64,000 nt of DNA from Leucoraja erinacea (lineage: Eukaryota), in the NCBI RefSeq assembly GCF_028641065.1, contig NC_073406.1, positions 11,222,001 through 11,286,000 of the forward strand, in the 5' to 3' direction. The notes beneath the pieces are model-generated. The model had not been told where the DNA came from. It saw only the letters and a program-made list of their open reading frames with translations, and did not search any database. A program made the position numbers and the translations under genes. This document shows, piece after piece, positions 12,901 through 63,361 of the stretch (positions within the stretch are counted from its first letter, which is position 1; each line of letters starts with the position of its first letter).

Positions 12901-15900
12901 CATGAAGGCAAGCATACCATATGCCGATTTTACCACTCATCTACCTGTGTTGCCACTTTCAGGAAGATATGGACTTGGACCCTAAGTTTCCTCTGTACGT
13001 CAATGCTATTGAGGGTCATGTTAATAACGGTATATTTTGCCTTTACATTTACACTGCCAATGTGCAGCACCTTGCACATGCTGTGATTAAACTCCATTGG
13101 TCATTACTTCGCCCATTTCTGTAGCTGATCTTAATTTTGTTGTACACCTTGACAGCCTTTCTCAGTCTGCAACCCCAGCAATCTTCGCGTCTCCATGTAG
13201 AATCCAGCAATGGAGCTGCACCTTGCTAACTCCCTGGCATTTGTGTCAAGAAATTGTCTGATTCAAGATACAAAACTACATTCATTTCAATGGAGACTAG
13301 ATATAAAGTAAAGGCAAATTTGTTTTCTTTTCATTATTTGATTTAATTTAACATTTTCAATTATGTTGAATTTACTTAACTCTTTATTTTGTTTCAAACG
13401 TCTCAATTGTTAAAAATCCTCCACCACTTTTACACCTGGCAAAGTGTTTTATTTGATAATACTTCTGAAATCTAATCACTGTAATAGAAATAAATGGTAG
13501 CCAATTTATGCAAGGCAAGCTTTAACCCCATGCAATGTGATAGCATAAGCATAATTTGTCTCTCAGTGATGTTGGTTAAACAATAAATATTGATCAAGTT
13601 ATGGGAATGACCACATTAAGTGCTTTGAAATACTGTAGTGTCATGGGATCATTTCTGGCTACCAGAAAAAAAACGGAACTTTGGTTCCAAATGCCATTGG
13701 ACTGAAATCTGAACCCACGACTCTGACGAGGCCAAAGCGCAACCAACTATGCCACAACTGACACAACATACTAATCTAGTAATTACACCAATTCTAAAGT
13801 CCTAAACATAGATAAACCAACCACTATAAATTGAGGGAATGAGGTTAAAATAACTGGGTACCGTGACAGCAGTGCTTTGACATGAATACCATACCGAGAA
13901 CTAAACATCCAATTCAACACCATTGGTATTTCATCTTTTAATGATGCTACTTTGAGAGCATCAAATCACTTTCACAATCGAAAAATACTCAACAGTCACA
14001 AAAAAAGCAATTAAATCAACCAGTTTTGAAGCATATTTTACCTTCAACTAATACTCAAGAAATTGAATGCATGAAATTGGAGAGCAAAGAATAGATGAAA
14101 TCCATACAAACAACTCCATTAATAGTTCTTCTCAAAAATGTCTTAAGTATATTACGATACAATTTTGCCACCTATTCAATTTTTATAAGATAATATCAAC
14201 CATCATACTTGCAGATGCATCTCGAATCAAACATTTAATACTGATTCAATACAGTAAATCCACTAACCTGCACATGCAGCTTATATCAAACAAAACTAAA
14301 TCTCAAGATATCTGATGGTCGTTACATACATTCAGCTATTTGAAAATTGCAATGCAATTTCGACAATATGCTATCTGTATAAAATCAAAGATAAAATCAC
14401 AAATCTCTTACACATGAAATAAAACAACTATTCATTACCCAATTGCTGAAACTGGCTGCAAGCTCCATTGTGTCATAGAAAACAATGACGAAGTATAGAT
14501 CCATTTTTAACTACATCAAGGTGGTAAATAACAGGATCTCCCTTGCTTCAACAAAACAGCTAAGTGCACTAGCACAATGGCATGCAACTTTAGCGATGAA
14601 GGTATTATGCTTGCAAAAGAAAAACATAAATTTTGTTGGGCTTGTGGTAATTCCATTCCACTATGACCCTGCTGAGAGGAAAAAATACATCATCTGGAAT
14701 GAAATGAAAACAATAAACAATTTCAAAAATCAAATACAACACAACTGGGATAAACTACTTAGTGCTTCTCTTCAGCCAAATTTAGAACTTTAGACTTGAG
14801 ATACAGCTTAGAAACAGGCCCTTTGGCCGACCAAGCCTGCGCCAACCAGTAATCACCCCATACACTATACACGAGGGACAATTTATAATCTGTACTGGCC
14901 AATTAATATACAAACTTGCAGACACAGGGGGAACGTACAAAATCATAGTCAGGATCGAACCCGGGTCTCTGACGCTGTGAGGCAACAACTCTACCACTGT
15001 GCCATTGTGCCACCCTCGTGCATTAAATTTTATCTGTGGTACAGATTGCTTGTCTGAATGGTTATCTTCCAGTATTCACAACTCTCCAAATGAGTGTATT
15101 TGTAAATCACTATTTCAATTATCCATGCAGAGCACCTTGACCACCAACATCGGTTAACTCCTAGGCTTGAATCACACCTCCTTATCGGACCAAACACATT
15201 GTGTTATAAATTCAATATTCATGCACTTTGCCTCGGCAGCTAAGCTATTTGGGACACAGCAACTAAGAATAAAATTATTAATTGGAAAACCACACCGTTA
15301 AACAAATTTGTAACCAAACTAAAGTGGCATACATGGCTAAAATATATCCAGATATATTCACTTATTTCATTCTACCACTTTCTTTGCCAATTCTATAATT
15401 GTTCCCCCGATTTACTTGCCATCATCTTCTTATTTAACTGGGCAATCAAGTCCAGGTTGGGGAATGCCCTGAAACACCTTATTTCAAAGGTAGACTAAAG
15501 TGCTGGTGAAACTCAACGGGTGCAGCAGCTGAAGAAGGGTTTCGGCCCGAAACGGTGCTATTTCCTTCGTCCATAAATGCTGCTGCACCTGCTGAGTTTC
15601 TTCAGCACTTTTGTTTACCTTAGATTTTCCAACATCTGCAGTTCCTTCTTAAACACCTTATTTCAAAGAATGATTAAGAGTATGGCTGCAAAGCAATGTC
15701 TGAAATATGCACTCCTTCCCTTCCACGCCCATTCTTTTATTTCCAAGTATTTTGCAAAAGGACAATATCTCATCCCAATGAAAATTTTATTGTTGCACAC
15801 ACAAGAGAGATATATAAAAAAACTGTTTTGTGTGCTATCCAGACCACTCATACCATACACAAATACAATTATGCCCATCTTTTCATCCCCATGAAGAAAT

Positions 15901-18900: not shown

Positions 18901-21900
18901 AACCTACCATGCACAATCTCAGGGCTTTTTTGGGAGTTTAGTTGTTGTGATTCATTTTCCTCTACCTCTTTCTCCTCAACTTCCACAGATTCCTTGCTTT
19001 CCACATCTTCATCTTTGTCATCATTGATAGGAGCTTCCTCACTGTCCTCTTCCTCTGCTGCAACCTCCAGATTGGTTGATAAAACTACGGGAGAAAGTGT
19101 AATCTCTGCCTCCGTTTCTGTCCTAAGATTATCTTCAATCTCTACATTAGCCGGCAATGAAAAATCTGGTGAAACACTTTCTAGAGTGCTTGGTGTTATT
19201 TCCTGTCCGGCAATGCCATTCACTTCTGTAGTCGTGATAATAGTACAAGGTACCGTGGTTTCATCAAATTGAGCAACAATTGTTTCTTCAGGTAGATCTT
19301 CGATATCCTCCTCTTTTTGTTTATCATCTTCTGCTTCTTTGTGCAAATGTACAGTCAATGTAAGTTTCTTCTCCTCATTGGAATTGGATGTTTCAGATTC
19401 GTCAGCACAATCCATCGTTGGGAAAATAGCATTACTGGAAACATTTTCCACCAAAGCTCCCTCTTCTTCTGGCTCCTCCCCTTCTACTACTTCCTCCTCC
19501 TCCTCCTCCTCTTCTTCCTCCTCCTCCTCCACCTCCTCCTCCTCTTCCACCTCCACCTCCACCTCCTCCTCTTCTGCCACCTGTAAAGGAACTGGATCAG
19601 GTGGTTCTCCATCAATCTCTTTCTTTTCTTCAACTATTTCCGATCTAACATCTGGGGTAGAACTTTTCACTGGTGGTTCCGGCATTGGTTTTTCTTCTGT
19701 GTGATCAAAAAAAGGTATTCTATTTCAGTGAACATACTATTTTTGTTTCACGCAAAGTTTGTAACATTAAAAAAATAAATAAAAACAGAACAATTAGAAG
19801 TCACCCATTAACATTCTTGCCAAAACTAACTGTCCATAGCTGTGCATGGTTAAAACTTAATTGTCATTTGTTAATCTGGATCAAACCATATTTGGTAAGA
19901 GGAAATATTTAGATTTTTTTTTAAGTTTGTCATATAATAACATCATTCTTAATGTAGCCTGAACTGCATTTTTAATTATGTCAACTTACATCCATATATT
20001 TGTGTTTAAAACACAAAAGTTAGAAAAGGAAATTAATTGTTCTGTCATCTATCAAAATCCTTTTTGAAAGCAAACAGGACAAGTCAAGACTTGAGTTGCA
20101 ATAAAGATTATTATCAATTCTTCATAACTGGCTCGTGATTTATCTTCAAAGTATAAAATGAGGCATTAGGTAAATGGCTTTGGATTAAGCCAAGTAAAAT
20201 AATCATTAATTGCACAGTATCAGGTAGAAGTGAGAAAGTATGGCAATCTTAATATTACACAAAGCACAATTTACTAATTTTAAACATGTGGTTTTCATTT
20301 TTATTGTATTGGAAAATGTTATTAATATATCCAGATATTCCCGCTAGCTGTGAGCCACCGTGATTTTGCCTTACAAGTCATGCAACTTATGTAAAATGTG
20401 ATGTGACTATAAAAATGACCAGGTACTGCAAACCATTAAATTGGAAACACAGCAAATGATTTAAGTTATATAGTAAACATTAAGGAACACTAGATATATC
20501 CAACATTTTTTAATGATCCAACAGGTATAACTTGCTCCACTATACCCACTGATTGGCGTCATTGGTGCTCTTCACATAATAAATCATCTTTGGTGCTGTA
20601 CCGCAGTGTCATAAACTAAATTGACACAAAATCCAAATATGGCATATGAGGTGGGGTGTTTAAAAAGCTCCGAGAAACAGATAGGTTTTATGCAGGGCTC
20701 TAAAAAGAGAGGTGAAATAGGCAAAATGAGTTCAGAAAGCTTTGGCTTTACTTAGGTGAAGGTCAAGATCAAGGTTGAAGTCTGAAGAAGGTCTCGACCC
20801 GAAAAGTCACCCATTCCTTTTCTCCGGAGATGCTACCAGACCCGCTGAGTTACTCTAGCCTTTTGTGTCTATCTTCTGCAGATTCTATTCCTTCAAAGTT
20901 CACTTTTTTTAAATGAGTAGAGTGGTAGATGCCTGGAACAAGCTACCAGAGGAGGTGGTAGAAGCTGATATATTAGCAATACCTGAAACGCATTTAGACA
21001 GAGGCACAAACATTCAGAGAGTAGAGAAGGACGGCGCAAACACAATAGGCTGAAATCCTGTTTTGTATGCTGTTCTATGTTCCATGAATATAGTATCACA
21101 CAGCAAAATTTAAACCAAAGGATTGAAAGTATGAAGGACTTGTGAATACATTTCCAAAAAGCATAATATAATTGCTGAAACCAAACCTGTGCTTTCCGTA
21201 ATGCAACACTAAATTTTATGAATGATGATATATTTCTAATTTCATTATTCAATAGGCAGAAGAAATTGCTACTTCTCTTCACATAATCACGGAAATATCC
21301 CTTCTTCATATGTGCAAACTTGACGTTGCACAGAAGTTAAATATATTATTTTGTTTTATTTTGCAGTAAATTCTTAATTTAGTTCCATACCTGGTTTCAG
21401 TTTTGTAATAGCAGCTTCAGTTCGCTCCACTGAAATAAATAGAAACATTTTATGGCATGTACCATGCCTGAACTTGTAATTATAGGAATTCTACTTTGTA
21501 TTTAAGTTTATTGGTCCTTATTGAGAAAACATTGCATATGCAAGTGTAGATATTTAAAACAGTAAATTAAAAATACTTCAATTACACCAAATTTTCAAAG
21601 AAAACTACTTGTTATGTATGTCTGTTGAGAACAAATCAAAATGTCCATACTTTTTCCTAGAAATCTAAGACTACCTTTCCCTGGTAGTAAGCAGCTATTT
21701 AAAAAAAAATTGGTGTAATGTTTCCTTACTCTATGAACAACAAACCTTGCATCATTCATTTTACTATTTTGAAATCATAATGCTTTATTTATCTTTGAGT
21801 TCTATAATTTATATTGGTTAATTCTTGCTATTGAGGGAGTGCAGCGTAGGTTCACAAGGTTAATTCCCTGGATGGCGGGACTGTCATATGCTGAGAGAAT

Positions 21901-51900: not shown

Positions 51901-54900
51901 CATGGGACAGGCAGCATCTCTGGAGAGAAGGAATGGGTAACGTTTCGGGTCTAGATCCGTCTTTGTATTTATATATCTCTCATGTTTCTTTCAGAACGTC
52001 CTTCATCATCTTACTACCAATATAGTACTTTGAAGTGCAGTCACTCCTGCAATATGGGCAAACATAGATGAGTTTTATAGAGAGCAGTGGATGCCTGGTA
52101 CAGGTTATCAGGAGTGGTGGTGGTGGAGGCAGATGTAATAGTGGCATTTAAAAGGCTTTAAATAGGTGCATGTATATGCAAGGAATATGGATCACATGCA
52201 GGCAGATGAGATTAGTTTAACGTGGCATCATGTTCGACATACACATCGTGGGCAGAATAGTTGGTTCCTATGCTGTACTGTTCAACGTTCTATTGGAGTT
52301 AACAACTTGCATCCTACAAATAGTAATGTGATAATAACTAGATAATCTGTTTTAGAAAGATTGATTTAAGACATAATGTGGACCAGGTTAGAACAGTAGT
52401 TAAGAACCATGCCATTCTTTTTCTAAATAATGCCTTGCCTTTTACTTGCACCCGAGAAAGCTGACAGCCACTCAGCTCAACATCTCAACTGAAAGACAGC
52501 GGATTTGATTGTTTGACATTTTAGTACAGCACTGCAGTGCCATAGGCTTTGTGCCTAAGTCTCTGGAGTAGAAATTGAAAGCTGAACCTTATGACTTGAC
52601 AAAATGTGGTATCAACTGAGCCATTGCAAAAGTTCACAGGGAAGGTAAAATACGCAGATTTAGTTTCAGATAATGTGCTGACATTAATGTCTTAAGAATA
52701 CAAGGGGGCCAATAACTGTTAAATCCATTTTGTATTTTCAGATGAGCCAGATAGCAATGTGAGGAATTAACAGGTTTAGGAACAGCCAGAAAAACCAGTG
52801 ATCATTATCACTGCAAAAGCTTCAGAGCTCACTACACCCACACTTGATTAATATTAAAGAGAAACATGAAGACTGGATGCTAACATTTGTACAGTTCTTA
52901 CTCGTCATATTACATTATCCAATGTGAGGCAGTAAATCGAAAAAAAGGCATCACATTTGAAAACGTAACAGTTACCACATTTGAGCAAAGGTAAACAAAT
53001 TATGGGACAGCTGAGTTTTTCTTGTTTCACAGTTGTAATGCCTAACAATAGTCTCTTCCTACTTTTAATAAATGCCTAGTCAGACATTGCAGTAAAATCC
53101 AGCAAGACGACATGTACTGGGAGATAATGACAACACCTCATCTTGTGACACAAATTTAGATCATTCTCACACCCAGATTAGAATGACAGCTGAAACAGAT
53201 TTGCTCAATAAATATGCAAATTGTTTTCTTAATTGAAATTTTACTCAAAACAAAATATAATGATACACATGCTTATTTCCATTCTTTGGGCAACATTCCA
53301 TTTGAAAAAGACAATACTGACCTTCCATATATTTTTCAACTGTTCTGTGCTATGAATGTCTATTAAGTTCCTGTGGAGCAGCTTTTGGGCTTAGCCAATT
53401 TTTGAAAACCGAATGTACCTGTTGAAAAATGTCAGTACACTAGGATAGCTACAGAACCAGTACTATGAAAACATTATCATCTGAAATTTAATCTGGAAGT
53501 TGGTCTACGCATCCAACACTGGGGTGATATCCTAACAGCAACAATCATTGAGCCAATTTCACTCATTTGGACAGTGATATCTTGAACCTCCCTGCATAAT
53601 ATTCAAGCTATCGATATGTTAAAATACTTACTTTCCTCTCCTTCCCACCACTGTAGATATAACAGATTTTTTTTTTAATTGCAGGAGTCCATATCACTGA
53701 CAAAGCCTGCGTTTATTGCCCTTCTCCACCTGCTCTCAAAGGTAGTATAAGGAGCTGCCGTAAGCTATTGTTCTCTTCCTGATAAAAGTACATCAAAAGT
53801 TCTGTTGGGCAAGAAACCTAGGACTTATATTGCTGTTTTGTTATTACAGCAATTTCCAAAGCCTGATACTTGGAAGAGTTCTTGGAAATGGTGGTAAAAT
53901 CATGAGCATGCTATCTTATGGTTTATTGCAGTTAAGATCAAAACTTGAGCGACTGCTAAATAAGAGCATGCAGTATGTAAATGATGCATTCTGCAGGTAG
54001 TTCATTGGATGTAGAGTGAGTGAACATATTGAATGGTGGATGCGGTACAAACAAGCAAGGTTACATTACCTTGAATTCTAGCAAAAGAGAGCTACTGGAG
54101 GAACTCAAAAGGTGAGGCAGCATCTGTGAAGGGAAATGGACAGTTGACATTTGGGGTCAAGATCCCAGCTGGGCTGAAAGAGTCGGGGAAGTAGCCAGTT
54201 TAAACAGTTGGAGAGCGGAGTGGAGCAAGAGCTGATAAATGATAGGTGAATACATGTGAGGAGGGATTGATTGGCAAATAAAGTCTGGTGGGGGAGGGAA
54301 ATATGTACATAACAAAGGCTACAGTTGCTGAAATCTGATAAGAAAGGAAAGTGAAGAATGGACCGGCATGAGGGGAACAACAGGAGGGGAGGTGTATGCT
54401 GTAGTGAGTTAGGGCATCCAGTAGGAGGGGTGAAAAGAAATGCAGTAAGAGGGATCTGGGGGTTAAGGTGGGAAGAAGGGTTTGCAAGAGAGGCAAACCT
54501 TGTTAGGAGGAGAGAAAAGGACATATGAGGTGTGGTTTACTTGAAATTCAAAATTTTAATGTTCTTGTCACTGGGATGGAGACTAACCAGGTGGAATACG
54601 GGGTGCTCTTCCTTTACTTTGCATTTGGCATCAACTGCAGGGGAGAAGGCCGGTGACAAACAGGTCAGTCTGGGAAACGGAATTAAAATGGCAGGCTATC
54701 CAAAACGGGTGGGAAGCAGGGGTCTGGAATGGACGGGGAGGAATGCTGTCACCCAAGTGTTGGAGCTGCATTCATTCAGACAGTGGAAACGATTCAAGCA
54801 CACTCCTAATGCGACTCTTAATTGGCGGAAAGATTTTGGGGTGCCACATTGGTAATGTCATCAAATATCATGTGTGGTTATATAAAGTTGATATCAAACT

Positions 54901-57900
54901 CAGGTAGAATTTGAACTCCGGGTCTGTGCTATTAACTGAAGAAGGGACTTGACCCGAAACATCACCCATTCCTTCCCTCCAGAGATACTGCCTGTCCCGC
55001 TGAGTTACTTCAGCATTTTGTGTCTACATGTCTGTTATGAACTATGTATTATGGCAGAGTAAGTACATCATCAAAACCCAATGAAAAAATTAAACGAGTG
55101 AAGGAACCATGATCAAATTCAGGCAAATATTATGTATATCAATATGCCATATTTCAAAAGAATTCATGCAAAAGGTTCATTACAATCTTTTTCCCCTCCT
55201 ATATCTGGAATCCCAGTACATGAATCATCTTCTGTACCTTGCCCACGTGGGCATTCATTTGTAATAAGTCAACACTTGCAAACTTTGTTCGTCTATTTAA
55301 AAGCTGTGCTATAAATAGCTATGCCATAAATATAAAATATTATCCTTATCTATCAATTCCATATGTGTGTGTTTCTGAATAAGGTTAAAGTTGAGCACCA
55401 ATGCTGAAGGTAAGCTACAGCACATGCTGGAAGCCTCAAACAAAATCAGGCAAACCACAAACCATAGACAAATATAAATTCATTTCTCAAGCCAGAGTGC
55501 CAAGGGCTTTGATGGGTGGAATTAGTCAAGTGTGCTCAAGCAATATATGGAGGGAAGGTACCCTGGAGGATGCAAAAAAGTGAGGTTCTATTCAGGCAAA
55601 GGAAGTGGCATAGGTCAAGTGTAGGCAATGGGGATCTAGTGTATCCTTGTGTGTAATGAAATGAGGATCATAGTTAAGGAAGAGATCAGGAGACTAAGAA
55701 GGGAGCATCAGAAAGCTGTGGCATAAACATATTAAGGACAATCCAAGAAGACTATGTATATCAAGGAAAAAGGGATAACTAGGGCATATGAAGGTAGATA
55801 AATCTCCAGGACCTGATCAAATTTATCCAAAGAGTCAATCGGAAGCTCGAGAAGAAACAACAGGAGCCCTGGCTGAACTGTATGAATCCGCATCAGACAC
55901 GGGTGTGGTGCCAAAAGATTGGCTAAGATTTTGCCTCAATTTAAGGGCTGGAAATAAAAAACCTGGGAACTATAGACCAGCAAGCATAACAGCAGTGGTA
56001 GGAAAGCTACTGGAAAGGATTCTGAGGGACATAAGACACATGCATTTGGAAAAGACAGGGGTTCATTAGGGGATAATTAACAGAGTTTTGCATGTGGGAG
56101 AGTCTCATTAATATGATGATGAACTGGCATAGCAGGAAGCAGAGGGTGATGGTAGAATTGTGTTTTTTCAGACTGGTAGATTGTGCTGAATTCTCCCAAT
56201 ATATAGCATTGCTGTAATCTTCGAACCTCCTGGCTTCTGTGGGTTAGTTATGTTGTTTCATATCAAGTACGTCAGCAACTGTTAATCTATGTTCCAAAAC
56301 AAGTATTTCTTAAAATGTCATTGGTGAAAATATTTTTCAGTTAAGAAGGGAGATCAAAGGATATAAAGTAATACTGGTATTTCCAATATTACCAGATTGA
56401 TATAAATTATTATGCAAAAAAAACTAATCCTTTGATAAAACTTCTTGTTAATGGTTTTCATAGCATGTTTAAAGTTTTGCCTGTCACTTATTTTACAATT
56501 TATTAACACCCCTGCACACATACTGCCTACTCAGCCAAACCACAAGAAAACAGAACATGATTGGCATCAAGGCACAACTTTGACAGGTATCTTATTAATG
56601 GAGATATTTATTGTAGCTGTTGTCCATATTTTTTATTTATCCAAGACAATTTTCAAAAACGCCTCTAAATTTTATTTTTATTTGTGTGACGATTCAGAGA
56701 AAATGATGGATCCCTTGATCACACAATGAATCCCAAGTGTCCGACACAATTTAAAATAGGATTTACATTACACAATTGAAGATGGCAAAATAATCTGACA
56801 GTTGAAAAAGGTAAACCCACAGAAGATCACCATTGCTTTTTATTAGCCTTAAAATGTAGTTCCAAAAACCGATCAAACAGATGAACATACTTGCCTCAAA
56901 ATAGTAACTCTACATTTGAGAATGGCAGCAATCTAATTAAGCCAAGTACTGCTTTGAGAAATTTGCAATGATCACAGGAATCTTGAACCAATGACATGAA
57001 ATCTAAAAATATCACTGACCATTTTACTGAAGGAATCAGAAAACATGGTAGACACCATCATTGAATCAAATTAAAACTAAATCTGCCCGATTTCATTATG
57101 CCAAGAATGTTTTCCTGTTGTTGCTGATAGATTTGAACATTAAACAGTATCTCAAACTAAGACCTTGCTCAGCGACTTTCTATGGTGTCATGTTTGACAA
57201 CTATCAAAACTGCTTGAAAATTGCGTCGAAGACCATTGTACTGTAAAGTGAAGTTCCTCAAGTGCTGAAAGGATGCTGCCCGGCCTGCTGAGTATTTCCA
57301 GTGTTAACTGGTCATTTTTTCTGCTAAAAAGCTAATTTGCCTGAACATTCATATTTTGTAATAATCTCCCAGTTCATTTACAGTAATGCTGTTTGAATAG
57401 GAGATATTAAATTTTCAAATTCATAGATTGAAGTTGAAAATTACAAAGGTACAACTGTAATATTGCAATTGACACCAACTTAACGGGAAAACAGAAGCTC
57501 AATCTCAAATATCTTGTTGCTTTTTAAGTAAAGAAATGGTCAAAGAAGAAATGTCACCACTTCTGCAATCACAATTGAAAAGCAAAAATAATACATACAT
57601 ATTGCACATCCAATAAAAGTACATTTTATAAACGTTTAAAGTAGAAATTCAAAGAGAAAGCAATTGAGGAGTTGCTTCTGTTGCAGTTCTGTGGATGCTG
57701 AGACAGCTGATACAATCAAAATAAGGTCTACAAACTTTACCACAGGTAAAGGTGGTGGGTGAGGGAGGTGGAATATTCTTTCTGTTTTAACTTGTCTATG
57801 GTGCACTCCAATAAAGAGACACGAGTTTCTCAAATGCTTCTGGCTGATTCATTAACTTAAGCAACCCCAATGCAGAAATTTTCACAATTAGTAAGGATGT

Positions 57901-60900
57901 TACATTATTCCTGAGGAAGGTTTAAGAAAACACTCCTGCTGTGATTGAGGTCAGAGTGGAGTGTCTGCACCAGGATTCTAACTTTGGGATGGAGAAGGAC
58001 TCGGCCCCTCCATTAGTGCTGGTCACCTGCACGGAGAACCTCTGTTTTAGAGGTGACAGCCTTGGAGATGATGCCGAATTATCCTGCCACGGGATCTGGA
58101 GGATACTGCAGAGACAAGTTTGATGCATTTTTCCAGTGCTGTGGTGGGTAGTCTCCATCTCAGAAGCACACAAAATGGGTGAAATGCATAAAACGGGCTT
58201 AATGTGCATTTTTCACTCGTGCACATGGCTCAATGACTTGATACAGCAATCCACAGCTCCTCCTTTGTAATCTTTCGATGCGTTTTGTTAAAAGAAGTAA
58301 CTCCTACTGAGCTATGGAGACACAAGAAACTGCAGGTGCTGGAATATTGATCAAAAAAACAAAGTTCAATGAATGCTTAGTGGGTGCAGCAGAATTTGTG
58401 GAGGAAGTGGACAGGTGATCTTTAGATCGATTTGGATTAGGAAGGGTCCTACCTGAAACGTCATCTGTCTATTTCCTCCACAGATGCGGCTTGAAGCATT
58501 GAGTTCCTCATGCACCTTGTTTTTTTTCCTAAACCTACTCTCCAGCCAACCTACACTCCAGGGAAATGTTCCATTGATTGTTTACAATCTACCTTTCAAA
58601 TGCACCACAAACAAAATCCATAAAGCTATTTTCACTGCTTCCTTCAGCCTCTGCACTGAAGAACTTATCATCTCTGGAAATGTCAACCTTTACATCCATT
58701 GACCTTGTTCACTATTCTGTATACACTGGCTCAGATAATCTTACACACCACTGAGCCATTTTTTAAAATTGCCTGCAACTACTTTCTCTTCCCATCACCT
58801 CCCTCCACAAACCTTATCCCCAGAATAGCATTTAAGCTTCTCTTCCACCTTTCCAGCTGCTGCCTGCCATGCAATCACATATCCTCACTCTATGAAGTTA
58901 TTCTTTTAACAAGGCCTTCGTCCTCCTTGGACCACCCAACATGTACCCTGGCACCACAACATTTCTTCATCTTCAGGCATTGTCTCCCCCCCCCCATGCT
59001 TTCAAATTAGCGATCATCAACCTTCTGAAAAATCCATGTTTCTCCATTCTTCCAAATCACTACCTAATCTTCCATTTTTCTTTCCTCTAAACTTCTTGAG
59101 CATATGGATGGCTTACCCAGACCTCATGCAAACTTCTCCAAGGATTTGAAGACTTTGAACCCAAAATTGTACACAAAGTTTCTTATGACATCCAAGGCAA
59201 ATATGGCAAAGGTAAACAATCCTTCCTCCTTGTCTTTCACAAAGATTGTACTATTTTTCATACTGAATTGTATCATCTTCCACCTGCTCACCATTGTCAA
59301 TCAACCAGGTAAGCTGCATTTGTTTTGTTTTTTTCGGGCAATGCCAACAAGTTTTTGTGAAAAGAGCACCGTGAAAGGTAACGTATCGTGAATAAAGGGA
59401 GCAATGGATGCACTATACTTAGATTTCAGGACAGCATTTCAAAAGGCCCGCATCAAATGCTACTGTAGACAAAAAGCAGCTCACAGTTTGGGAACCAACA
59501 TATTCACATGGATAGACATTGGCTAGCACCCAGGAATACAATGAGATTAAATGGGATTTTTTCTGGTTGACAAATGCAACAAATGGTCTACCTCATGAAT
59601 CAGTGCTGGAGCTTTACCTTTTTACAATTTATATACATTTAACATCAATACCTTTGGTACCTTCAAGGATGAAGACAGAAGGTACGATAGCTAGATCTGC
59701 AGAAGATACAAAGACTGCTAGGGAAGAAAGTTGTAAAGGGGACAGAGTCTACAAAGAGACAAAGACTTATGAGTGGGTCAAAATCTGGAAAATAGAATAT
59801 GTGAAAAAATATGAAATTGACCATTTTGGCAGCAATATAAAAAGGCATATTGTTGCCATTGGGGCATGCAGCGCATCCATGCTGACCATATTAATCCCAT
59901 TTACCAGCACCAGGTCCATACATTCTATGCATTTATTAAGCACATGTCTAGATAATTAAATCTTGCAAGAGTATCTGCCCCACCTATTCAGACAGTACCC
60001 TAAATCTATGCCCTCTAGTCTTAGATGCTTCTGCTATGGAGGAAGAAATTACCTGCGCCCCTCATAATATTATGTACCTGATCGGGTCCACGCTCAGCAT
60101 CCTCCATTCCAAGAAAAACATAACCAGTCGATCAGTCTCTCCTCATAACTGAAATATTCCACTCCTTTAATATACTCAACGCGCTTTGGGATTTTCCTTA
60201 ATCTAGTCTGTCAGTCATATTTTTTGGCTCCTCATTGGCCTCAATTTATTTTTAAAGTATTAATGGTGGGTACTTTTGAATATGATAAGAGTCCATTTCC
60301 TCAATTACCATGTCCATGCATGCATTTACCTCTTTTATTATCTTTAAACTGTCTAAACATTTGTCCATTAACTTTTGAGTATATGTTTCAGCTAAATATT
60401 AAGAATAGCTGTCAACTTTAATTCCCAAAACAAAGTCTTGACACAAACACTATCCATTTCTCTATCTGAAACTGAACCAGACTGCTCGAGATGGGTTGTG
60501 GGCCACATCACTATCACTTTTCAAAATCATTATTACCACCTTCATAGCGTTACCTGTCTCCACTGTTGCTTCCGCTGCTTCTGAAACCCTTAGTTATGCC
60601 TTTGTAACACCCAGCATTGTCTATTATGATGCATTCATTTCAGGTTTTCCTCTTTTACTCTCTGTATACTTGCGATGCTGTGATCTGAAAGGCCTTGTCT
60701 TAACTTTAAGTATTGTTCATCATCAGCTCTACATTTGTTCATCTTCAAATGACATGTTGATTTTAAAATGTTCATCTTTGTTTGCAGATCAATCCATCCA
60801 TCTTGTCCCTCCCTTTTTCTCTCATCTGTTCCTGCCCCATTACTACCAAGATATATTTTTCTGGAGAAGGATCTCGATCTGAAATGTCACCTATTCCTTT

Positions 60901-63361
60901 TCTCCAGAGATGCTGTCTGACCCGCTGAGTTAGTCCAGCTTTTTGTGTTTATCTTTCGGCACATTAGATAATTCCAGCCTTCTGATCATCACTGAATTTA
61001 ATCACTTCATAATCAACAGCTATGCTTTCAATTGCCAAGACGCTACGCTCTGGATCTTCCTTCTATATTTCCCTTCGGTATCAGCTTTTGTGAAGCTCCT
61101 TAAACCCAGTTACTTCTTTAAAACATTTTTTGAAACACATTTTTTTTAAATGAGTCTGTCAAAAACTAATCTACTTGTCAAAAACCTGGACCATTTATTT
61201 ACATCACAACTGCACTCTGTTGACTCACTGATGTGTCTTCTGCATAGTCACAATATTTTTCAGTCATAACATGGAGATAAATGTACATCTTCCACCATGC
61301 TTTAACTTTTTCTCAGGCTTTTGTCCTCGGTCCATTTATGGAGTGGACACTTGAAAGAGCGGAACATTTTTTCAGCAAGGGAGTAGTAACGTTAAAGGAT
61401 TGAGATAAATTAGTCATGGTCAGCATTGGGATGAGGGGAGAAATCTGGATGGTTAGCAGTTCAAAAAGGGATTAAGTGAAAGGTTGGGGAGCTTTGAGGA
61501 CAAGCTCCGTCTAACGGCAAGAAAATAAACAGCAGATCTCTTCGGGAAAAGAATGGAATGGAATCTAAAAAGTATTTTGTTTTGATTTTGGAAAAAGTAC
61601 TTTGGTTTAGTTTTGTTTACCGTCACATGTATCGACGTACAGTGAAAATCTTTTTGTAGCGTGCTAACCAGTTAGCGGGAAGACTATACATGATTACAAT
61701 TGAGACGACCACAGTGACATACATGATAAGGGGAATAACATTTAGTGCAAGATAAAGTCCAGTATAGGTCCCATTAAAGATAATCCGCGGGGCTCTAATG
61801 AGGTAAGTAGTAGCTCAGGACCACTCTCTAGTTGTCGATAGGACGGTTCAGTTGCCTGATAACAGCTGGGAAGAAACAGTCCCTGAATATGGAGACACAA
61901 GTTGTCACACTTCTGTACCTCTTGCCTGATGGGAGAGAGGAGAAGAGGAAGTGACTGGGCTGAGGCTCGTCCTTGATTATGTTGGTGGCCTTGCTGAGGC
62001 AGCTTGAAGTGTCAATGGAAGGGCGATTCGTTTGTGTGATGGTTGCAGTTAGACTCGAGTGCTAGAGTGAAAATCATCAGCAATGGCTATAGAATATTCT
62101 GCTCGGGATGATGAAATCTCAGCAATCGTGATCGATATTAAGGTTAATGATGTAAAGAGAGATGCAAGTAAGAAAACACAAAACATTAATAATACGGGAA
62201 ATAACATTTCCATGTGGTCCTGCAATTACTATTCAGGAAGATAGGAAGGAGATTACAATGCAGGCAAACAAAAGTAGTAATTAGAAGATTACTATTGGTG
62301 GCTTATGATAGCGTGTATTGAAAGGAGAGTGCCCAAGGAAAAACTTGAGTTCTGCAAGCTATACCTGCCAGCTGGAGTACTGGTTACAGCAGTTCTGGTT
62401 ACTACCTTGTTGGAAATTAGTAGCACCCAAGAGGGCACAAATGAGATCTACAAAAAAAAGCCAATGACAGATTTAACTGAGATCTAATACTGAAAGCTTT
62501 GGATGAATGATGGAATTGGATTTTACTGAGTAGAGAAATTACTACGAGCAACCAATTTAAGATAGTTGATACACATGATGAGAGAAATTCCACTCCAATA
62601 CCTCACAAAAAAATGTCAAATTAGTTCGACATGATTTCTTTAGCAGAACCAAAGAAGCTTTCTCTGATCAAGCTATACTTGTCCAAGTGACCACCAATTC
62701 TATCACTAATCACATCTAGAAATTTCCCCACTACTGAAGTCAAATTGACTTGTCCAGTTACTGGTTTCATTCATTTCTGTACAATGGTGTGGTAATGCTT
62801 AGAATTTCTAGTTTTCAGGCACCAATCCTGAATCTATGGATGTTTGTAAGATTGTAGATAAAGCCACAACAATTTTCTTACTAACCTCCATTAACAATCT
62901 AAAACCAGAGGATGTGTTCATATTATCAAGCATTTAAACTATTGATAGTTTGACCACTTAGTCTCAACCACTTACAATCAAACATGATTAAAGAAAATCA
63001 GATCCACTCCTCACCCAGCAATTCATTGCAATAGAAATGGTGAAAATTAGGAAGTTAAACATTTTCAATCATTAGCAGCCAACAGGCCAAACAGTTATTA
63101 GTGGCCAAAAGGAGTTTTGCTTGAAGACCATTTTGAACATATTTTTTTTTTTACGTTTAAGGTCAGTTGCTCAAGCCAAATGTCGACAATTTTTGGGAGA
63201 CTGAATGCAATTTGATCTTTCCCCATTTAATAAAGTGCATTGTTCGATCAGTAAAGTGAGAACTACTCATTAAGGCTAATATTTAATTTGGCAAAAATTG
63301 AGATGTATGAAGTGAATGGGGTAAATACCTGGTGGTGGGCAGCCCGGGGCCCTGCTGCGAA
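720..63361 (-). CDS. EIF4G3: Eukaryotic translation initiation factor 4 gamma 3, partial multi-exon gene (N-terminal half; gene extends beyond both window edges)
   Basis: Spliced exons give [27 protein letters not shown]...[36 protein letters not shown]...[21 protein letters not shown], collinear with vertebrate eIF4G3. GGFRPIQ (not GGFRSLQ) and KREKKT favour G3 over G1. All junctions are AG/GT with matching phases. Confidence 0.93.
2480..3500 (+). mobile_element. Highly decayed CR1 LINE fragment
   Basis: Degenerate similarity to the CR1 at 23083-24250 (tttgctgacagtacaaag, gagtttagaagaatg, gctgtggaggct). Confidence 0.65.
3547..4282. mobile_element. Non-autonomous DNA transposon (736 bp) with 16-bp imperfect TIRs and 7-bp TSD
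   Basis: Left end TAGGTATGTTACAAAA; right end reverse-complements to TAGCAATGTTACAAAA; AATTGAG directly flanks both ends (3540-3546, 4283-4289). Confidence 0.8.
4990..5078 (-). CDS. EIF4G3: EIF4G3 exon [30 protein letters not shown] (89 nt)
   Basis: ctgtattacag acceptor, GAG|gtaagg donor, phase 1-0; corresponds to the mammalian AQIAITVPKTWKKPK exon. Confidence 0.87.
7710..8200 (+). mobile_element. CR1 LINE 3' fragment
   Basis: accacgtttggagtattgtg...gcacagcctcagaataa...gggctgaatggcctaattct CR1 3' end. Confidence 0.8.
9269..9515 (+). repeat. 5' LTR of Gypsy element
   Basis: TGTGACG...CTCTTCA, direct repeat of 11892-12144. Confidence 0.88.
9560..11836 (+). pseudogene. Degenerate gag-pol of Gypsy element
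   Basis: Domains split across ORFs 9503, 9894, 10115, 10221, 10843, 10958 and 11192; RNase H and integrase N-terminus not seen. Confidence 0.88.
11892..12144 (+). repeat. 3' LTR of Gypsy element
   Basis: Follows the ggggtgggtt tract, ends CTCTTCA, aligns to the 5' LTR with many substitutions. Confidence 0.88.
12310..13190 (-). mobile_element. CR1 LINE 3' fragment
   Basis: ORF 12288..12545 ([24 protein letters not shown]); catagaa tail and aacaggccctttggccc. Confidence 0.85.
13470..13765 (-). mobile_element. Decayed Deu-domain SINE (SacSINE1/AmnSINE-like)
   Basis: gtcatgggatcattt...gaacccacgactctgac...accaactatgccac resembles the antisense of this SINE group. Confidence 0.5.
14790..15015 (-). 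mobile_element. tRNA-derived SINE (HE1-like) with CR1-type tail
   Basis: Minus strand gggtggcacaatggcacagtggtagag (A box)...cccgggttcgatcctgac (B box); 3' gggcctgtttc. Confidence 0.8.
15490..15650 (+). mobile_element. Penelope-derived short element with hammerhead core and inverted arms
   Basis: CTGAAGA-A-GGGtttcggCCC-GAAA at 15529-15552; inverted arms 15487-15529 and 15579-15621; 18-bp flanking direct repeat. Confidence 0.8.
16040..16915 (+). mobile_element. Rex1/Babar-type LINE 3' fragment
   Basis: [42 protein letters not shown] motifs; taaacctaa tail. Confidence 0.75.
16965..17490 (-). mobile_element. Decayed CR1 fragment
   Basis: gtgctgtcatctgcaaattt (minus strand KFADDST), gccttgtctaaggccatgtaga. 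Confidence 0.65.
18908..19696 (-). CDS. EIF4G3: EIF4G3 large acidic low-complexity exon (789 nt, EEKPMPEPP...SPEIVH)
   Basis: cacacag|AAGAAAAACCAATG acceptor, CATG|gtaggt donor, phase 1-1; starts like mammalian EEKPKPDP; overlaps ORF 18546..19685. Confidence 0.88.
20780..20877 (+). mobile_element. Hammerhead-core Penelope-derived short element
   Basis: tctgaagaaggtctcgacccgaaaagtc...gctgagttactctagc. Confidence 0.7.
21391..21429 (-). CDS. EIF4G3: Probable 39-nt EIF4G3 cassette exon (V)[12 protein letters not shown]
   Basis: atttatttcag|TGGAGCGAAC...AAACCAG|gtatgg; symmetric phase 1-1, open in the required frame; homology not recognised. Confidence 0.62.
21825..22312 (+). mobile_element. CR1 LINE 3' fragment
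   Basis: ORF 21839..22045 QRRFTRLIP...[13 protein letters not shown]; ctattgtctat tail. Confidence 0.9.
23083..24251 (+). mobile_element. Young 5'-truncated CR1 LINE with uninterrupted RT C-terminal ORF
   Basis: ORF 23141..24157: [21 protein letters not shown], native stop; (tttctatg)n tail. Confidence 0.96.
24692..24779 (-). CDS. EIF4G3: EIF4G3 exon [29 protein letters not shown] (alternative starts at 24776 and 24830)
   Basis: CAGCAG tandem acceptor, AAG|gtttgt donor, phase 0-1; similar to mammalian QLPSQVPEHSPVVYGTVESAH. Confidence 0.9.
25480..26757 (-). mobile_element. Tc1-family transposon, one end missing; transposase pseudogene
   Basis: TA|CAGTGCCCTCCATAATGTTTGGGAC terminus with inner direct repeat near 25691; [17 protein letters not shown] and TDEAKI motifs across frameshifted ORFs. 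Confidence 0.9.
26758..27800 (-). mobile_element. Penelope-like retroelement fragment (RT and thumb)
   Basis: [12 protein letters not shown]...[10 protein letters not shown] and MDAQSLYTS motifs; [13 protein letters not shown] region. Confidence 0.82.
28573..28598. repeat. C26 homopolymer (G26 on the transcribed strand)
   Basis: Read directly. Confidence 0.9.
29080..29700 (-). mobile_element. Highly decayed CR1 fragment
   Basis: tattccagaggtagtctcac (minus strand VRxxLEY), ggtactaatccctatggca. Confidence 0.55.
29772..29915 (+). mobile_element. Hammerhead-core Penelope-derived short element with 9-bp TSD
   Basis: agtctgaagggtatcggcccgaaacgtc (core has a 3-nt deletion); accctgtat at 29763 and 29916. 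Confidence 0.72.
30265..30390 (-). CDS. EIF4G3: EIF4G3 exon [42 protein letters not shown] (PABP-binding site)
   Basis: cttctgcag acceptor, CAG|gtagtt donor, 126 nt; canonical eIF4G PABP-binding motif. Confidence 0.96.
30802..32402 (-). mobile_element. Full-length Tc1 transposon (1601 bp) with long inverted repeats
   Basis: CAGTGCATTCAGAAAGTATT...AATACTTTCTGAATGCACTG|TA; inverted repeats of about 200 bp; [20 protein letters not shown] and SLDLNPI motifs. Confidence 0.96.
31020..32004 (-). pseudogene. Tc1 transposase pseudogene
   Basis: ATG at 32004 (MKTK*LSVDLRD, early stop), several frameshifts, ends KGASTKY*. Confidence 0.9.
32506..32600 (+). mobile_element. Truncated HE1-like SINE head with duplicated B-box segment
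   Basis: gggtagcacagtggtgcagcagtaaagttgc...gggttcaatgctgactatg...gggatcgatcctgactatg. Confidence 0.6.
33785..33882 (-). CDS. EIF4G3: EIF4G3 exon [33 protein letters not shown] (98 nt)
   Basis: ttctttcaccag acceptor, ACG|gtaaag donor, phase 1-0; start of the PABP-binding motif. Confidence 0.93.
35798..37225 (-). mobile_element. Penelope-like element 3' part (RT, thumb, GIY-YIG) ending in hammerhead-bearing terminal repeat
   Basis: [29 protein letters not shown] and [12 protein letters not shown]; terminal hammerhead-like core near 35850-35878. Confidence 0.88.
38682..38723. repeat. Perfect 21-bp tandem duplication
   Basis: (tgaagcaggaaggagaaagca)x2. Confidence 0.9.
42486..42612 (-). mobile_element. 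Hammerhead-core Penelope-derived short element with TSD
   Basis: tttcaggtcgagacctttcttcagac on the plus strand; flanks aat(c/t)gaatagctt. Confidence 0.72.
43924..44032 (-). CDS. EIF4G3: EIF4G3 exon [36 protein letters not shown] (109 nt)
   Basis: ttttataatag acceptor, TATG|gtaagt donor, phase 0-1; similar to the mammalian [25 protein letters not shown] exon. Confidence 0.92.
44200..44900 (-). mobile_element. Old Penelope GIY-YIG fragment with nested hammerhead element (about 44748-44840, +)
   Basis: [23 protein letters not shown] in ORF 44622..44810. Confidence 0.65.
45270..45363 (-). mobile_element. Hammerhead-core short element inserted in a CR1 fragment
   Basis: gtttcgggtcgagatccttcttcagac on the plus strand. 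Confidence 0.68.
45465..45965 (-). mobile_element. Rex1/Babar-type LINE 3' fragment nested in decayed CR1 (about 45140-46510, +)
   Basis: [18 protein letters not shown]...[14 protein letters not shown] in ORF 45663..45893; caagt repeat tail. Confidence 0.7.
47308..47406 (-). mobile_element. About 100-bp hammerhead-core element with 17-bp TSD
   Basis: Minus strand agtCTGAAGAAGGGtttcagCCCGAAACGTTg; atctttaatcatcctaa at 47291 and 47407. Confidence 0.85.
47438..47488. repeat. 26-bp period tandem duplication
   Basis: taaatactacagtggtgtagttagg c taaatactacagtggtgtaattagg. Confidence 0.85.
47933..48118 (-). CDS. EIF4G3: EIF4G3 exon FFQRPPMQP...YYIANP (186 nt)
   Basis: ttcctgcag acceptor, CCG|gtaaga donor, 62 codons of Pro/Gln-rich N-terminal region; contained in ORF 47888..48130. 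Confidence 0.92.
48549..49043 (+). mobile_element. CR1 LINE 3' fragment
   Basis: ORF 48579..49025 [22 protein letters not shown]; gttatatg tail. Confidence 0.92.
49334..49354 (-). CDS. EIF4G3: EIF4G3 21-nt neural microexon GGFRPIQ
   Basis: ttgttgaag|GGAGGATTCAGACCTATTCAG|gtaata; matches the known eIF4G3 microexon peptide. Confidence 0.92.
51876..51963 (-). mobile_element. Penelope-derived short element (hammerhead core damaged)
   Basis: tagacacaaaaagctggagtaactca...acgtttcgggtctaga. Confidence 0.62.
52300..52627 (-). mobile_element. Decayed Deu-domain SINE (SacSINE1-like)
   Basis: cacccgagaaagctgacagc...aacatctcaactgaaagacagc...caagtctctggagt-like segment...aactgagcca. Confidence 0.6.
54090..54760 (-). 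mobile_element. Decayed Penelope 3' fragment
   Basis: Same layout as 35798-36200 (gcagcatctgtg..., purine-rich tract, ttacttgaaatt, gggtgctcttcct). Confidence 0.6.
54936..55027 (+). mobile_element. Hammerhead-core short element
   Basis: ctgaagaagggacttgacccgaaacatc...gctgagttacttcagcattttgtgtcta. Confidence 0.7.
55600..56185 (+). mobile_element. Decayed CR1 ORF2 fragment
   Basis: [28 protein letters not shown] in ORF 55788..56069. Confidence 0.8.
58317..58525. mobile_element. Inverted pair of decayed Penelope-derived short elements
   Basis: tgtggaggaagtggacaggtga versus tcatctgtctatttcctccaca around gaagggtcctacctgaaacgtc. Confidence 0.6.
59390..59850 (+). mobile_element. Decayed CR1 RT fragment
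   Basis: [23 protein letters not shown] remnants. Confidence 0.65.
60861..60957 (+). mobile_element. Penelope-derived short element (degenerate hammerhead) within L2-like remnant
   Basis: ctggagaaggatctcgatctgaaatgtc...cccgctgagttagtccagc. Confidence 0.6.
61595..62045 (-). mobile_element. Rex1/Babar-type LINE 3' fragment
   Basis: acagctgggaagaaacagtccctgaat...cttgcctgatgggag, homologous to 45690-45800; tttggtttagttt tail. Confidence 0.7.
63329..63361 (-). CDS. EIF4G3: EIF4G3 33-nt exon [11 protein letters not shown]
   Basis: ttctcttcag|TTCGCAGCAGGGCCCCGGGCTGCCCACCACCAG|gtattt; phase 0-0; resembles mammalian FAAGPRPPHHQ. Confidence 0.9.

Follow-up and report, generated by a model that had tools for sequence, protein, structure and literature searches.

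Short hammerhead repeats of Leucoraja erinacea are abundant, mostly decayed end modules of Penelope-like elements

Several features of Penelope-like elements (PLEs) are already known, namely the hammerhead motif (since 2014), solo ends, an optional tail and an inverted arm. The tail measures 30-40 bp (PMC8557442, PMC3846280), and in PAc, the Poseidon element of Anolis carolinensis, it corresponds to two internal start sites of reverse transcriptase (RT) (PMC11167929). Insertion of PAc does not need ribozyme cleavage, and its protein is predicted to form a dimer (PMC11167929). Minimal hammerhead motifs have been reported to cleave weakly, as dimers or with protein (PMC4209133, PMC11167929). The formation of pseudo-long terminal repeats (pLTRs), tails and inverted arms in PLEs has been named an open question (PMC8557442, PMC11167929). 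We investigated a family of short hammerhead-bearing repeats in Leucoraja erinacea, starting from a stretch of 64,000 nucleotides (assembly GCF_028641065.1, contig NC_073406.1, positions 11,222,001 to 11,286,000, forward strand), called here the window and used for numbering. An earlier reading of the window, made from its letters alone (the sequence-only reading), had proposed a ribozyme short interspersed nuclear element (SINE) or retrozyme-like family mobilised by Penelope machinery. We found that these repeats are ordinary in kind and very abundant, and that they are mostly decayed end modules of PLEs.

A long relative of the repeats lies on the minus strand of the window. The sequence-only reading had described a Penelope element at 35798-37225 that ends with the same module; this was confirmed, and comparison with longer copies by tblastn and blastn mapped the element to 35798..37234. 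It is a 5'-truncated, frameshifted copy of the Neptune type, made up of the C-terminal half of RT, a Cys-rich linker, GIY-YIG, a pyrimidine-rich non-coding stretch of about 120 nt and the hammerhead (35878-35798, minus strand; G12 mutated, tail cut). RT and GIY-YIG were mapped onto window positions 35930-37086 via tblastn. Pfam found no PLE domain in the frameshifted window frames, and in the relatives its matches to RVT_1 and to GIY-YIG, both with E=3.6e-4, fell short of the curated cut-offs. The Cys-rich linker between RT and endonuclease (EN) was present in copies L105 and L201 and in the window copy. A layout of RT, Cys linker and GIY-YIG has been described for Neptune and Nematis (PMC8557442). 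Judged by its domain layout, the parent is an EN-bearing (EN+) PLE of Neptune type.

The hammerhead and tail module ended 30 of 30 long relatives (the best relatives), with the same two 3' modes as the short copies described below. By walking upstream in the full-length copies L231 and L240 we observed that the module runs on into the body of the open reading frame (ORF). As the module ends all 30 long copies and also starts full-length copies, it stands at both ends of the element. Among 30 copies carrying the ORF start, a pLTR was present in 8 (approximately 4-5 independent events; four share one flank), 5 began at the fixed 5' edge (one being the query locus), and the remaining ones began inside the module or were chimeric. 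The full-length 5' ends in L242, L246, L251 and L255, all small contigs, have one common upstream flank and are therefore duplicates of a single insertion. The ORF likely starts here at an ATG approximately 35 nt after the long tail.

We wanted to know how common the module is. We drew 140 fixed-position stretches, each of 10 kb, from the 38 largest contigs (1.4 Mb; the assembly has 2.19 Gb), and matches below 25 bits were left out of the counts; the best score in the shuffled sample was 6.5 bits. There were 662 matches of at least 25 bits in 506 insertion events, and 12 of the 140 stretches had none. The events included 378 single copies, 96 inverted ones and approximately 16 same-strand multi-hit ones. 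The module covered 4.6% of the sampled DNA at a density of 1 per 2.8 kb, higher than the 1 per 5 kb that had been claimed from the window. Length scaling gives roughly 0.8 million events genome-wide, and an exact 31-mer with 10,833 occurrences in the genome and 10 in the sample gives roughly 0.55 million. For annotation, this would place approximately 4.6% of the sampled DNA under PLE ends, not under SINE.

The 3' ends of the 662 matches were bimodal, at model columns 99-103 and 127-134, approximately 33 nt apart. For the 5' ends we used 259 of the 378 singles, since 119 were dropped for lack of the 5' core or of 150 nt of flank, and 3 of the 259 were set aside for inverted tail remnants. There were 168 short copies, while 88 continued into element sequence for 27 to >600 nt, and most sufficiently long copies among those 88 reached GIY-YIG coding sequence. 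Copies without an ungapped anchor (45 of the 168 short, 11 of the 88 long) were left out of the edge analysis, which biases it against starts inside the core. In the 123 anchored short copies the share matching the element at positions -1 to -6 before C3 was 0.98, 0.84, 0.71, 0.34, 0.20 and 0.22, respectively, and beyond -6 it was approximately 0.05. The start lay 1-4 nt before C3 in 69% of them (bootstrap 55-78%), most commonly at the A of TCAGT. The stop rate at this edge was approximately 0.15 per nt, compared with 0.005-0.006 on either side, a 25-30-fold difference. With two 3' modes and a sharp 5' edge, the copy lengths are discrete, as the sequence-only reading would require, and do not form a continuous distribution. 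We rejected the possibility that the ends are set by ribozyme cleavage, as only 2 of 378 singles started at the cleavage site and 0 of 662 matches ended there. A type III-like cut just before AGU was rejected by eye, as positions 15.2 and 16.2 would not pair.

Target-site duplications (TSDs) of at least 9 bp were detected at 34 of 149 short singles (shuffled controls 0-4) and at 17 of 93 inverted pairs (controls 0-2). They were 9-17 bp long, with 64% AT in singles. The TSD-bounded singles measured 90-189 bp, with clusters near 100 and 128, and the longer ones carried scraps of inverted arm or of target DNA. The tails of 68 inverted pairs could be classed, the other 28 of 96 being left out as unclassifiable. 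We observed 54 long+short, 12 short+short and 2 long+long pairs, against approximately 34, 18 and 16 expected (p=2e-6 against independence); 5 of the 12 short+short pairs were copies of one composite. Since PAc cuts and extends both strands and its protein is a predicted dimer, two nicks primed from two sites is the simplest reading of these pairs.

An exact-pattern search returned 27 junctions in which the ORF start was joined directly to the edge at varied joints, and 4 of 6 inspected were same-direction dimers of module, ORF start and module. The pattern had fixed spacing, so the count of 27 is uninformative on other jump sites. These junctions fit template jumps after run-off. Because they differ from each other, independent events are more likely, and one fixed 200-nt mini-master was set aside. 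Separately, we noted mini-dimers in L273:~1500-1870, L275-L280 (~1300-1660) and L135:7300-7760, with a module, 65-250 nt of ORF start and a second module; their units of approximately 200-365 bp resemble a retrozyme precursor.

We then asked whether the short copies form a lineage of their own. Clustering of 323 copies gave 6 groups, each with long, short and paired copies, and in the largest group the consensus of long, short and paired copies was identical. Divergences of long and short copies in four clusters were 0.086/0.089, 0.070/0.067, 0.134/0.149 and 0.195/0.214, respectively. No short-specific site survived correction among 460 tests (best p=0.0115, a CpG column). Tandems were rare, at approximately 16 of 506 events with same-strand multiple hits, and were mostly partial duplications. 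Defined ends and TSDs were thus found, as for SINEs, and neither a separate master lineage nor tandem arrays of complete hammerheads were. Rfam gave no match on the window copies, and no tRNA scan was run. What stands of the proposed ribozyme SINE or retrozyme-like family is the discrete lengths, the many copies with their own TSDs and the PLE machinery; an independent SINE or retrozyme lineage is not supported.

The hammerhead was analyzed at the level of the consensus, which agreed with the minimal type I motif of the PLE kind that had been recognised earlier. It contains CUGANGA followed by an extra base, helix II, GAAA, a palindromic helix III (ACGU) and UH, with G10.1-C11.1. Helix II has 4 bp with a tetraloop, and helix I has 2 bp, a 2x2 internal loop and 1-2 further pairs. 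In 77 long copies helix I was paired in 85% at -1:+1, 93% at -2:+2, 83% at -5:+5 and 53% at -6:+6; the distal pairs were missing from most short copies. At E<=10 Rfam returned no hammerhead family for the window, so the call rests on motif and pairing analysis. Minimum-energy folds, which covered dimers as well, did not recover the hammerhead and gave inactive alternatives (z 0.68, 0.07, -0.43), and the isolated copy at 47308-47406 likewise gave none; this is expected for such motifs and uninformative. The core was kept in 102 of 249 copies, 70 of which kept the palindrome too. The sequence-only reading had looked to a core more conserved than its flanks, and among copies this was not so (0.92 for the core vs 0.90 for flank and tail, p=0.20). 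Between subfamily consensus lines the core was unchanged, except in one cluster of deletion-bearing copies, and changes in the motif either preserved base pairs (U-A to U-G) or left an H at the cleavage position. Both features suggest that the masters have been under selection.

Two details of the module sequence are recorded here. In columns 59-63, one codon of the reading frame left open in some subfamilies alternates between TGT, TCA, GCA and TGA, which is probably non-coding variation. Several subfamilies keep a YTNAY-like pentamer and YAG before the motif, e.g. at window 35879-35900 (minus strand), despite differing upstream sequence; the spacing is too short for a usual branch point.

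Transcripts were taken from a related organism, as one raw-read poly(A) run and three contig sets, which are unable to map starts. Transcribed copies broke at the same edge: loose ends whose flanks were unlike numbered 651 before the A and 593 before the G. Module reads were abundant in the poly(A) RNA at approximately 50:50 by strand, and 91% of the placed ones continued into dissimilar sequence, the pattern expected of passengers within host transcripts. No hammerhead-cut RNA ends were found in the one poly(A) run, a type of run that cannot show circles. Reads of ORF parts (L242:1000-1310 and 1500-1800) were strand-biased by approximately 2-5:1, in the orientation that normally indicates antisense RNA; the strandedness of the library was not stated.

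In our opinion the short copies, or stubs, are probably run-off cDNAs of the end module of Neptune-type PLEs, primed at the tail sites of element RNA. They would stem directly from the RNAs that also gave the long copies, with RT running to a template end shortly ahead of the ribozyme. This RNA would carry the module at both ends, and RT would prime inside the module. Following the anole PLE literature and the 3' modes, the protein would cut both strands of AT-rich DNA, with 9-17 bp between the two nicks, and priming would take place at two RNA sites approximately 33 nt apart. Priming at the 5' module would leave approximately 95 or 130 nt to copy and give stubs of fixed length, and priming at the 3' module would give the usual long, randomly truncated copies. 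If both nicks were primed, one per site, the product would be a head-to-head pair whose arms differ, one tail being long and the other short. The ragged edge 1-6 nt before CUGA might be a transcription start, a nuclease-trimmed end or a hard stop of RT. Within the run-off model a transcription start at TCAGT, which we take to be an initiator-like motif, is quite possible, at somewhat short of an even chance. Trimming by a nuclease at the folded or protein-bound module seems somewhat less likely than that. Inr-like and internal promoters have been reported for other PLEs (PMC2377424, PMC3846280). Ribozyme cleavage would not set the ends of the stubs, and the stubs, without the ORF-start sequence needed by the anole protein, would be dead on arrival.

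We tentatively extend this to a wider proposal, which we hold with less than even confidence. Several percent of the genome would be 'strong-stop'-like run-off cDNAs of a terminally redundant RNA beginning at helix I, and a protein with two active sites would prime both nicked strands from two fixed sites 33 nt apart, close to where that RNA starts. If this is true, strand transfer between the two module copies would give rise to pLTRs, much as for R in retroviruses, and the main role of the hammerhead would be to provide a landing site and a boundary, cutting being secondary. With its hundreds of thousands of insertions, the genome offers a natural record of how PLEs insert. From the long+short tail pairs, the edge common to stubs and full-length copies and the jumps from edge to ORF start follow exact predictions for the in vitro system now available.

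Several observations weigh against the stubs being run-off cDNAs without masters of their own. The edge is ragged and has no single start base, as the C before AGT was kept in 33 of 54 short copies with AGT. G was not enriched at the edge (6 of 54), so there was no sign of a cap-derived extra G. The edge is passed by 88 of 259 singles and 8 of 30 ORF-start copies (approximately 4-5 independent events), which requires longer templates or strand transfer. There was no pile-up of molecule starts or ends in the one poly(A) run of the relative, which was unable to map starts. The requirement for the ORF start is borrowed from an element of the Poseidon clade. The lineage test spans 92 columns and has limited power for young short-only masters, and the oldest cluster (divergence approximately 0.2) shows some consensus differences between classes. 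A derived unit has spread as well: a 67-nt internal duplication (columns 24-90) has the same junction in 4 loci (L048:437-684, L071:9738-9995, L037:3628-3781, L125:7280-7440), which points to one derived master. A head-to-head pair is also borne by a composite with common flanks and short inverted termini, resembling a miniature inverted-repeat transposable element (MITE) of DNA-transposon type, presumably Harbinger-like. As it was found in 5 loci in 1.4 Mb (approximate centres L039:3138, L083:6758, L089:6040, L134:810, L184:6449), this composite has spread as a unit.

Among the alternatives, the RNA of the element may be the source while the edge is a hard stop of RT on longer templates, caused by snap-back at the TCAG-N-CTGA palindrome, by entry into the C-rich tract or by a bound protein. 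We regard this as unlikely. The edge is ragged over approximately 6 nt and falls at the 5' strand of helix I, approximately one third of singles read through, and short and ORF-start copies have similar stopping shares, all of which favours a hard stop. However, RT travels 3' to 5' and reaches RNA structure from the 3' side of that structure, and within the hammerhead (columns 13-60) stops occurred at an ordinary 0.006 per nt. Several inverted junctions centre on the palindrome, but most lie off it, and a stall caused by G-rich cDNA would come 15-30 nt into the tract, a zone in which only approximately 2% of short copies end. A self-propagating non-autonomous family, i.e. a ribozyme SINE or retrozyme with an internal promoter that is re-copied by the PLE protein, appears improbable to us. 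It would account for discrete lengths with own TSDs, for the very high copy number, for the few derived units that recur and for the abundance of module reads in the poly(A) RNA of the relative. The copies also have TCAGT at the start and a weak GTC at +29 to +31, which we assume to be initiator-like and downstream-promoter-like, respectively. Against it, there was no short-specific subfamily or site, the ages equalled those of long copies, same-strand multi-hit events were rare, no ends lay at the cleavage site and cores decayed neutrally. The even strand ratio of module reads and their continuation into unlike sequence resemble passengers in host transcripts, and a solo with a short tail would be unable to yield long+short pairs.

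Full-length insertions can start at the same edge, so that recombination between their two direct module copies would leave a TSD-flanked solo pLTR; for rotifer solo pLTRs recombination has been invoked, with deletion as the alternative (PMC3846280). It is very improbable here. Sample coverage was 187 at the module and had dropped to 1-2 by 2.5 kb upstream. In one subfamily the ORF start gave 5 matches within the 1.4 Mb. Full-length precursors are therefore much too scarce, and the direct repeats measure only 100-135 bp. We give still less credence to the edge being a 3' splice site (pyrimidine tract, YTNAY, CAG), with stubs derived from a splicing intermediate or from RNA already spliced. All long subfamilies do have a pyrimidine tract and YAG directly ahead of the motif, a donor-like AG/GT stands at the ORF stop in one of the subfamilies, and the intron of Drosophila virilis Penelope ends at helix I (PMC4209133). 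Yet no shared exon precedes the short copies, no GT..AG joint was seen among 15 of 54 joints, and several subfamilies have no open frame through the module. The spliced-ORF idea, with a donor at the ORF stop and an acceptor before the motif, was dropped, as the donor GT was not conserved and the 4 inspected of 18 matches to the spliced-junction pattern were all the unspliced subfamily end. Finally, plain random 5' truncation of Penelope ends has next to no chance of explaining the main class, which the 25-30-fold jump in stop rate over 4 nt contradicts. It accords with the continuous lengths of the 88 long singles (27 to >600 nt) and with the 88 of 378 singles that start inside columns 13-60, and it describes the long class only. 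Run-off from the 5' module is our preferred reading of the short class.

The copies within the window were detected with a profile built from 8 copies, with 10 block-shuffled windows as a control. There were 19 matches, 13 of at least 30 bits (shuffled best 5.9 bits), and the stronger ones, grouped by the extended profile, made 14 insertion events. All 12 places and all four TSDs named by the sequence-only reading were recovered, with some corrections; no TSD of at least 8 bp was found at the 10 other window events checked. The listed copies 15490 and 58440 are in fact head-to-head inverted pairs. The first, at 15472..15668, has an 18-bp TSD at 15472 and 15651, a short-tail arm at ~15490-15528 (minus) and a long-tail arm at 15529-15650 (plus), and has lost U16.1; the second, at 58321..58523, is old, with the long tail on the minus and the short tail on the plus strand. 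Listed copy 44748 is the short inverted arm (44755-44844, plus) of an old 5'-truncated copy, inserted at 44213..44844 with no TSD found; the long arm (minus) holds GIY-YIG remains at 44753-44467 and a decayed end near 44279-44213. Listed copy 42486 (42473..42625, minus, short tail) carries approximately 30 nt of the 3' non-coding stretch of the element upstream and a 13-bp TSD with one mismatch at 42473/42613.

The short single copy at 47308-47406 (47291..47423 with its 17-bp TSD 47291/47407; minus strand) was the only one of the 12 listed copies whose letters, read at 47400, kept both the invariant core and the ACGU palindrome. The core letters without the palindrome were read in copies 20782, 45361 and 54936. 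These correspond to short-tail singles at 20779..20880 (plus; one G missing from stem II, palindrome of helix III broken, TSD not found), 45268..45363 (minus; older subfamily) and 54935..55029 (plus; query of the first genome search). Further short copies lie at 29763..29924 (plus; single with a long tail, 3 nt deleted from the CUGANGA box, 9-bp TSD 29763/29916), 51866..51964 (minus; CUGA box missing) and 60860..60958 (plus; single, short tail, A6 mutated). Older remnants beyond the first list were a highly decayed copy at 8412..8516 (minus), another at 50826..50891 (minus, 18 bits), a decayed tail fragment at 57271..57305 (plus, 16 bits) and an old copy matched at 54165-54092 (minus). The last extends to approximately 54540 (54092..54540), and its upstream pyrimidine-rich stretch resembles the 3' end of the element by eye. 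A second, older Neptune-type RT fragment without a hammerhead end was located at 26774..27766 (minus).

Other elements were also noted in the window. A degenerate long terminal repeat (LTR) retrotransposon, presumably Gypsy-like, occupies 9280-12117 with direct repeats at 9280-9490 and 11903-12117. Tc1-like DNA transposon remnants lie at 30801-32403 (long inverted repeats) and 25892-26561. The 3' parts of CR1-like long interspersed nuclear elements (LINEs) lie at 21821-24213 and 48546-49025, and an open frame of 363 aa in the former (23066-24157) gave a Pfam RVT_1 match. A Glu-rich open frame at 18546-19724 (minus), probably a large host exon, had no Pfam match.

SINEs that share the 3' end with a partner LINE are short, TSD-flanked and very abundant, and they depend on the enzyme of the other element. 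Unlike such SINEs, our repeats showed no tRNA, 5S or 7SL head by eye, the whole unit is element sequence and no master lineage was detected. Animal non-LTR retrozymes are similar to our repeats in their type I hammerhead, PLE origin, non-coding character and scattered monomers, and are reported to form tandem units of approximately 150-450 bp and circular RNA (PMC7229834; bioRxiv 10.64898/2026.07.22.740005). In contrast, our repeats are dispersed, 95-135 bp long and rarely tandem, without permuted or cleavage-site ends. The supplements of bioRxiv 10.64898/2026.07.22.740005 hold a chondrichthyan retrozyme consensus, which could bear on novelty. Our literature search, with repeat databases and most subscription papers outside it, turned up no paper describing this module family in cartilaginous fishes, and none on PLE stubs with a fixed 5' edge.

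The minimal hammerheads of metazoan PLE pLTRs (PMC4209133) have the same extra base between positions 9 and 10.1, G10.1-C11.1, palindromic 15.2-16.2 and short helix I as ours. They too are mostly scattered singles tied to truncated PLEs, with head-to-head pairs nearby. The helix II of 4 bp with a tetraloop is a difference, and a fixed 5' edge is not described in the accessible portion of that report. Motif numbers cited there are approximately 4,000 for coelacanth and 9,000 for Xenopus, compared with 10,833 for one exact 31-mer here. PAc resembles our element in the two internal RT start sites that lie downstream of the hammerhead and define the tail, in the cutting and extension of both DNA strands, in AT-rich targets and in having no RNA ends at the cleavage site (PMC11167929). 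It belongs to another clade, its ORF starts inside the hammerhead, and the account of it available to us does not treat the 5' edge in vivo.

The insertion unit of EN+ PLEs, as reported in PMC8557442 and PMC3846280, is also a close match. It has the same RT, Cys-rich linker and C-terminal GIY-YIG, heavy 5' truncation, inverted arms and tail of 30-40 bp at one end, and solo pLTRs are mentioned. Here pLTRs were found in 8 of 30 copies, inverted arms in 96 of 506 events, and one long tail in 54 of 68 pairs. TSDs are approximately 9-10 bp in these PLEs and 9-17 bp here, and the rotifer solo pLTRs, ascribed to recombination or deletion, are without TSDs (PMC3846280). Compared with the EN+ PLEs of those reports, in Leucoraja erinacea the shortest unit dominates, begins at a sharp start and often carries its own TSD.

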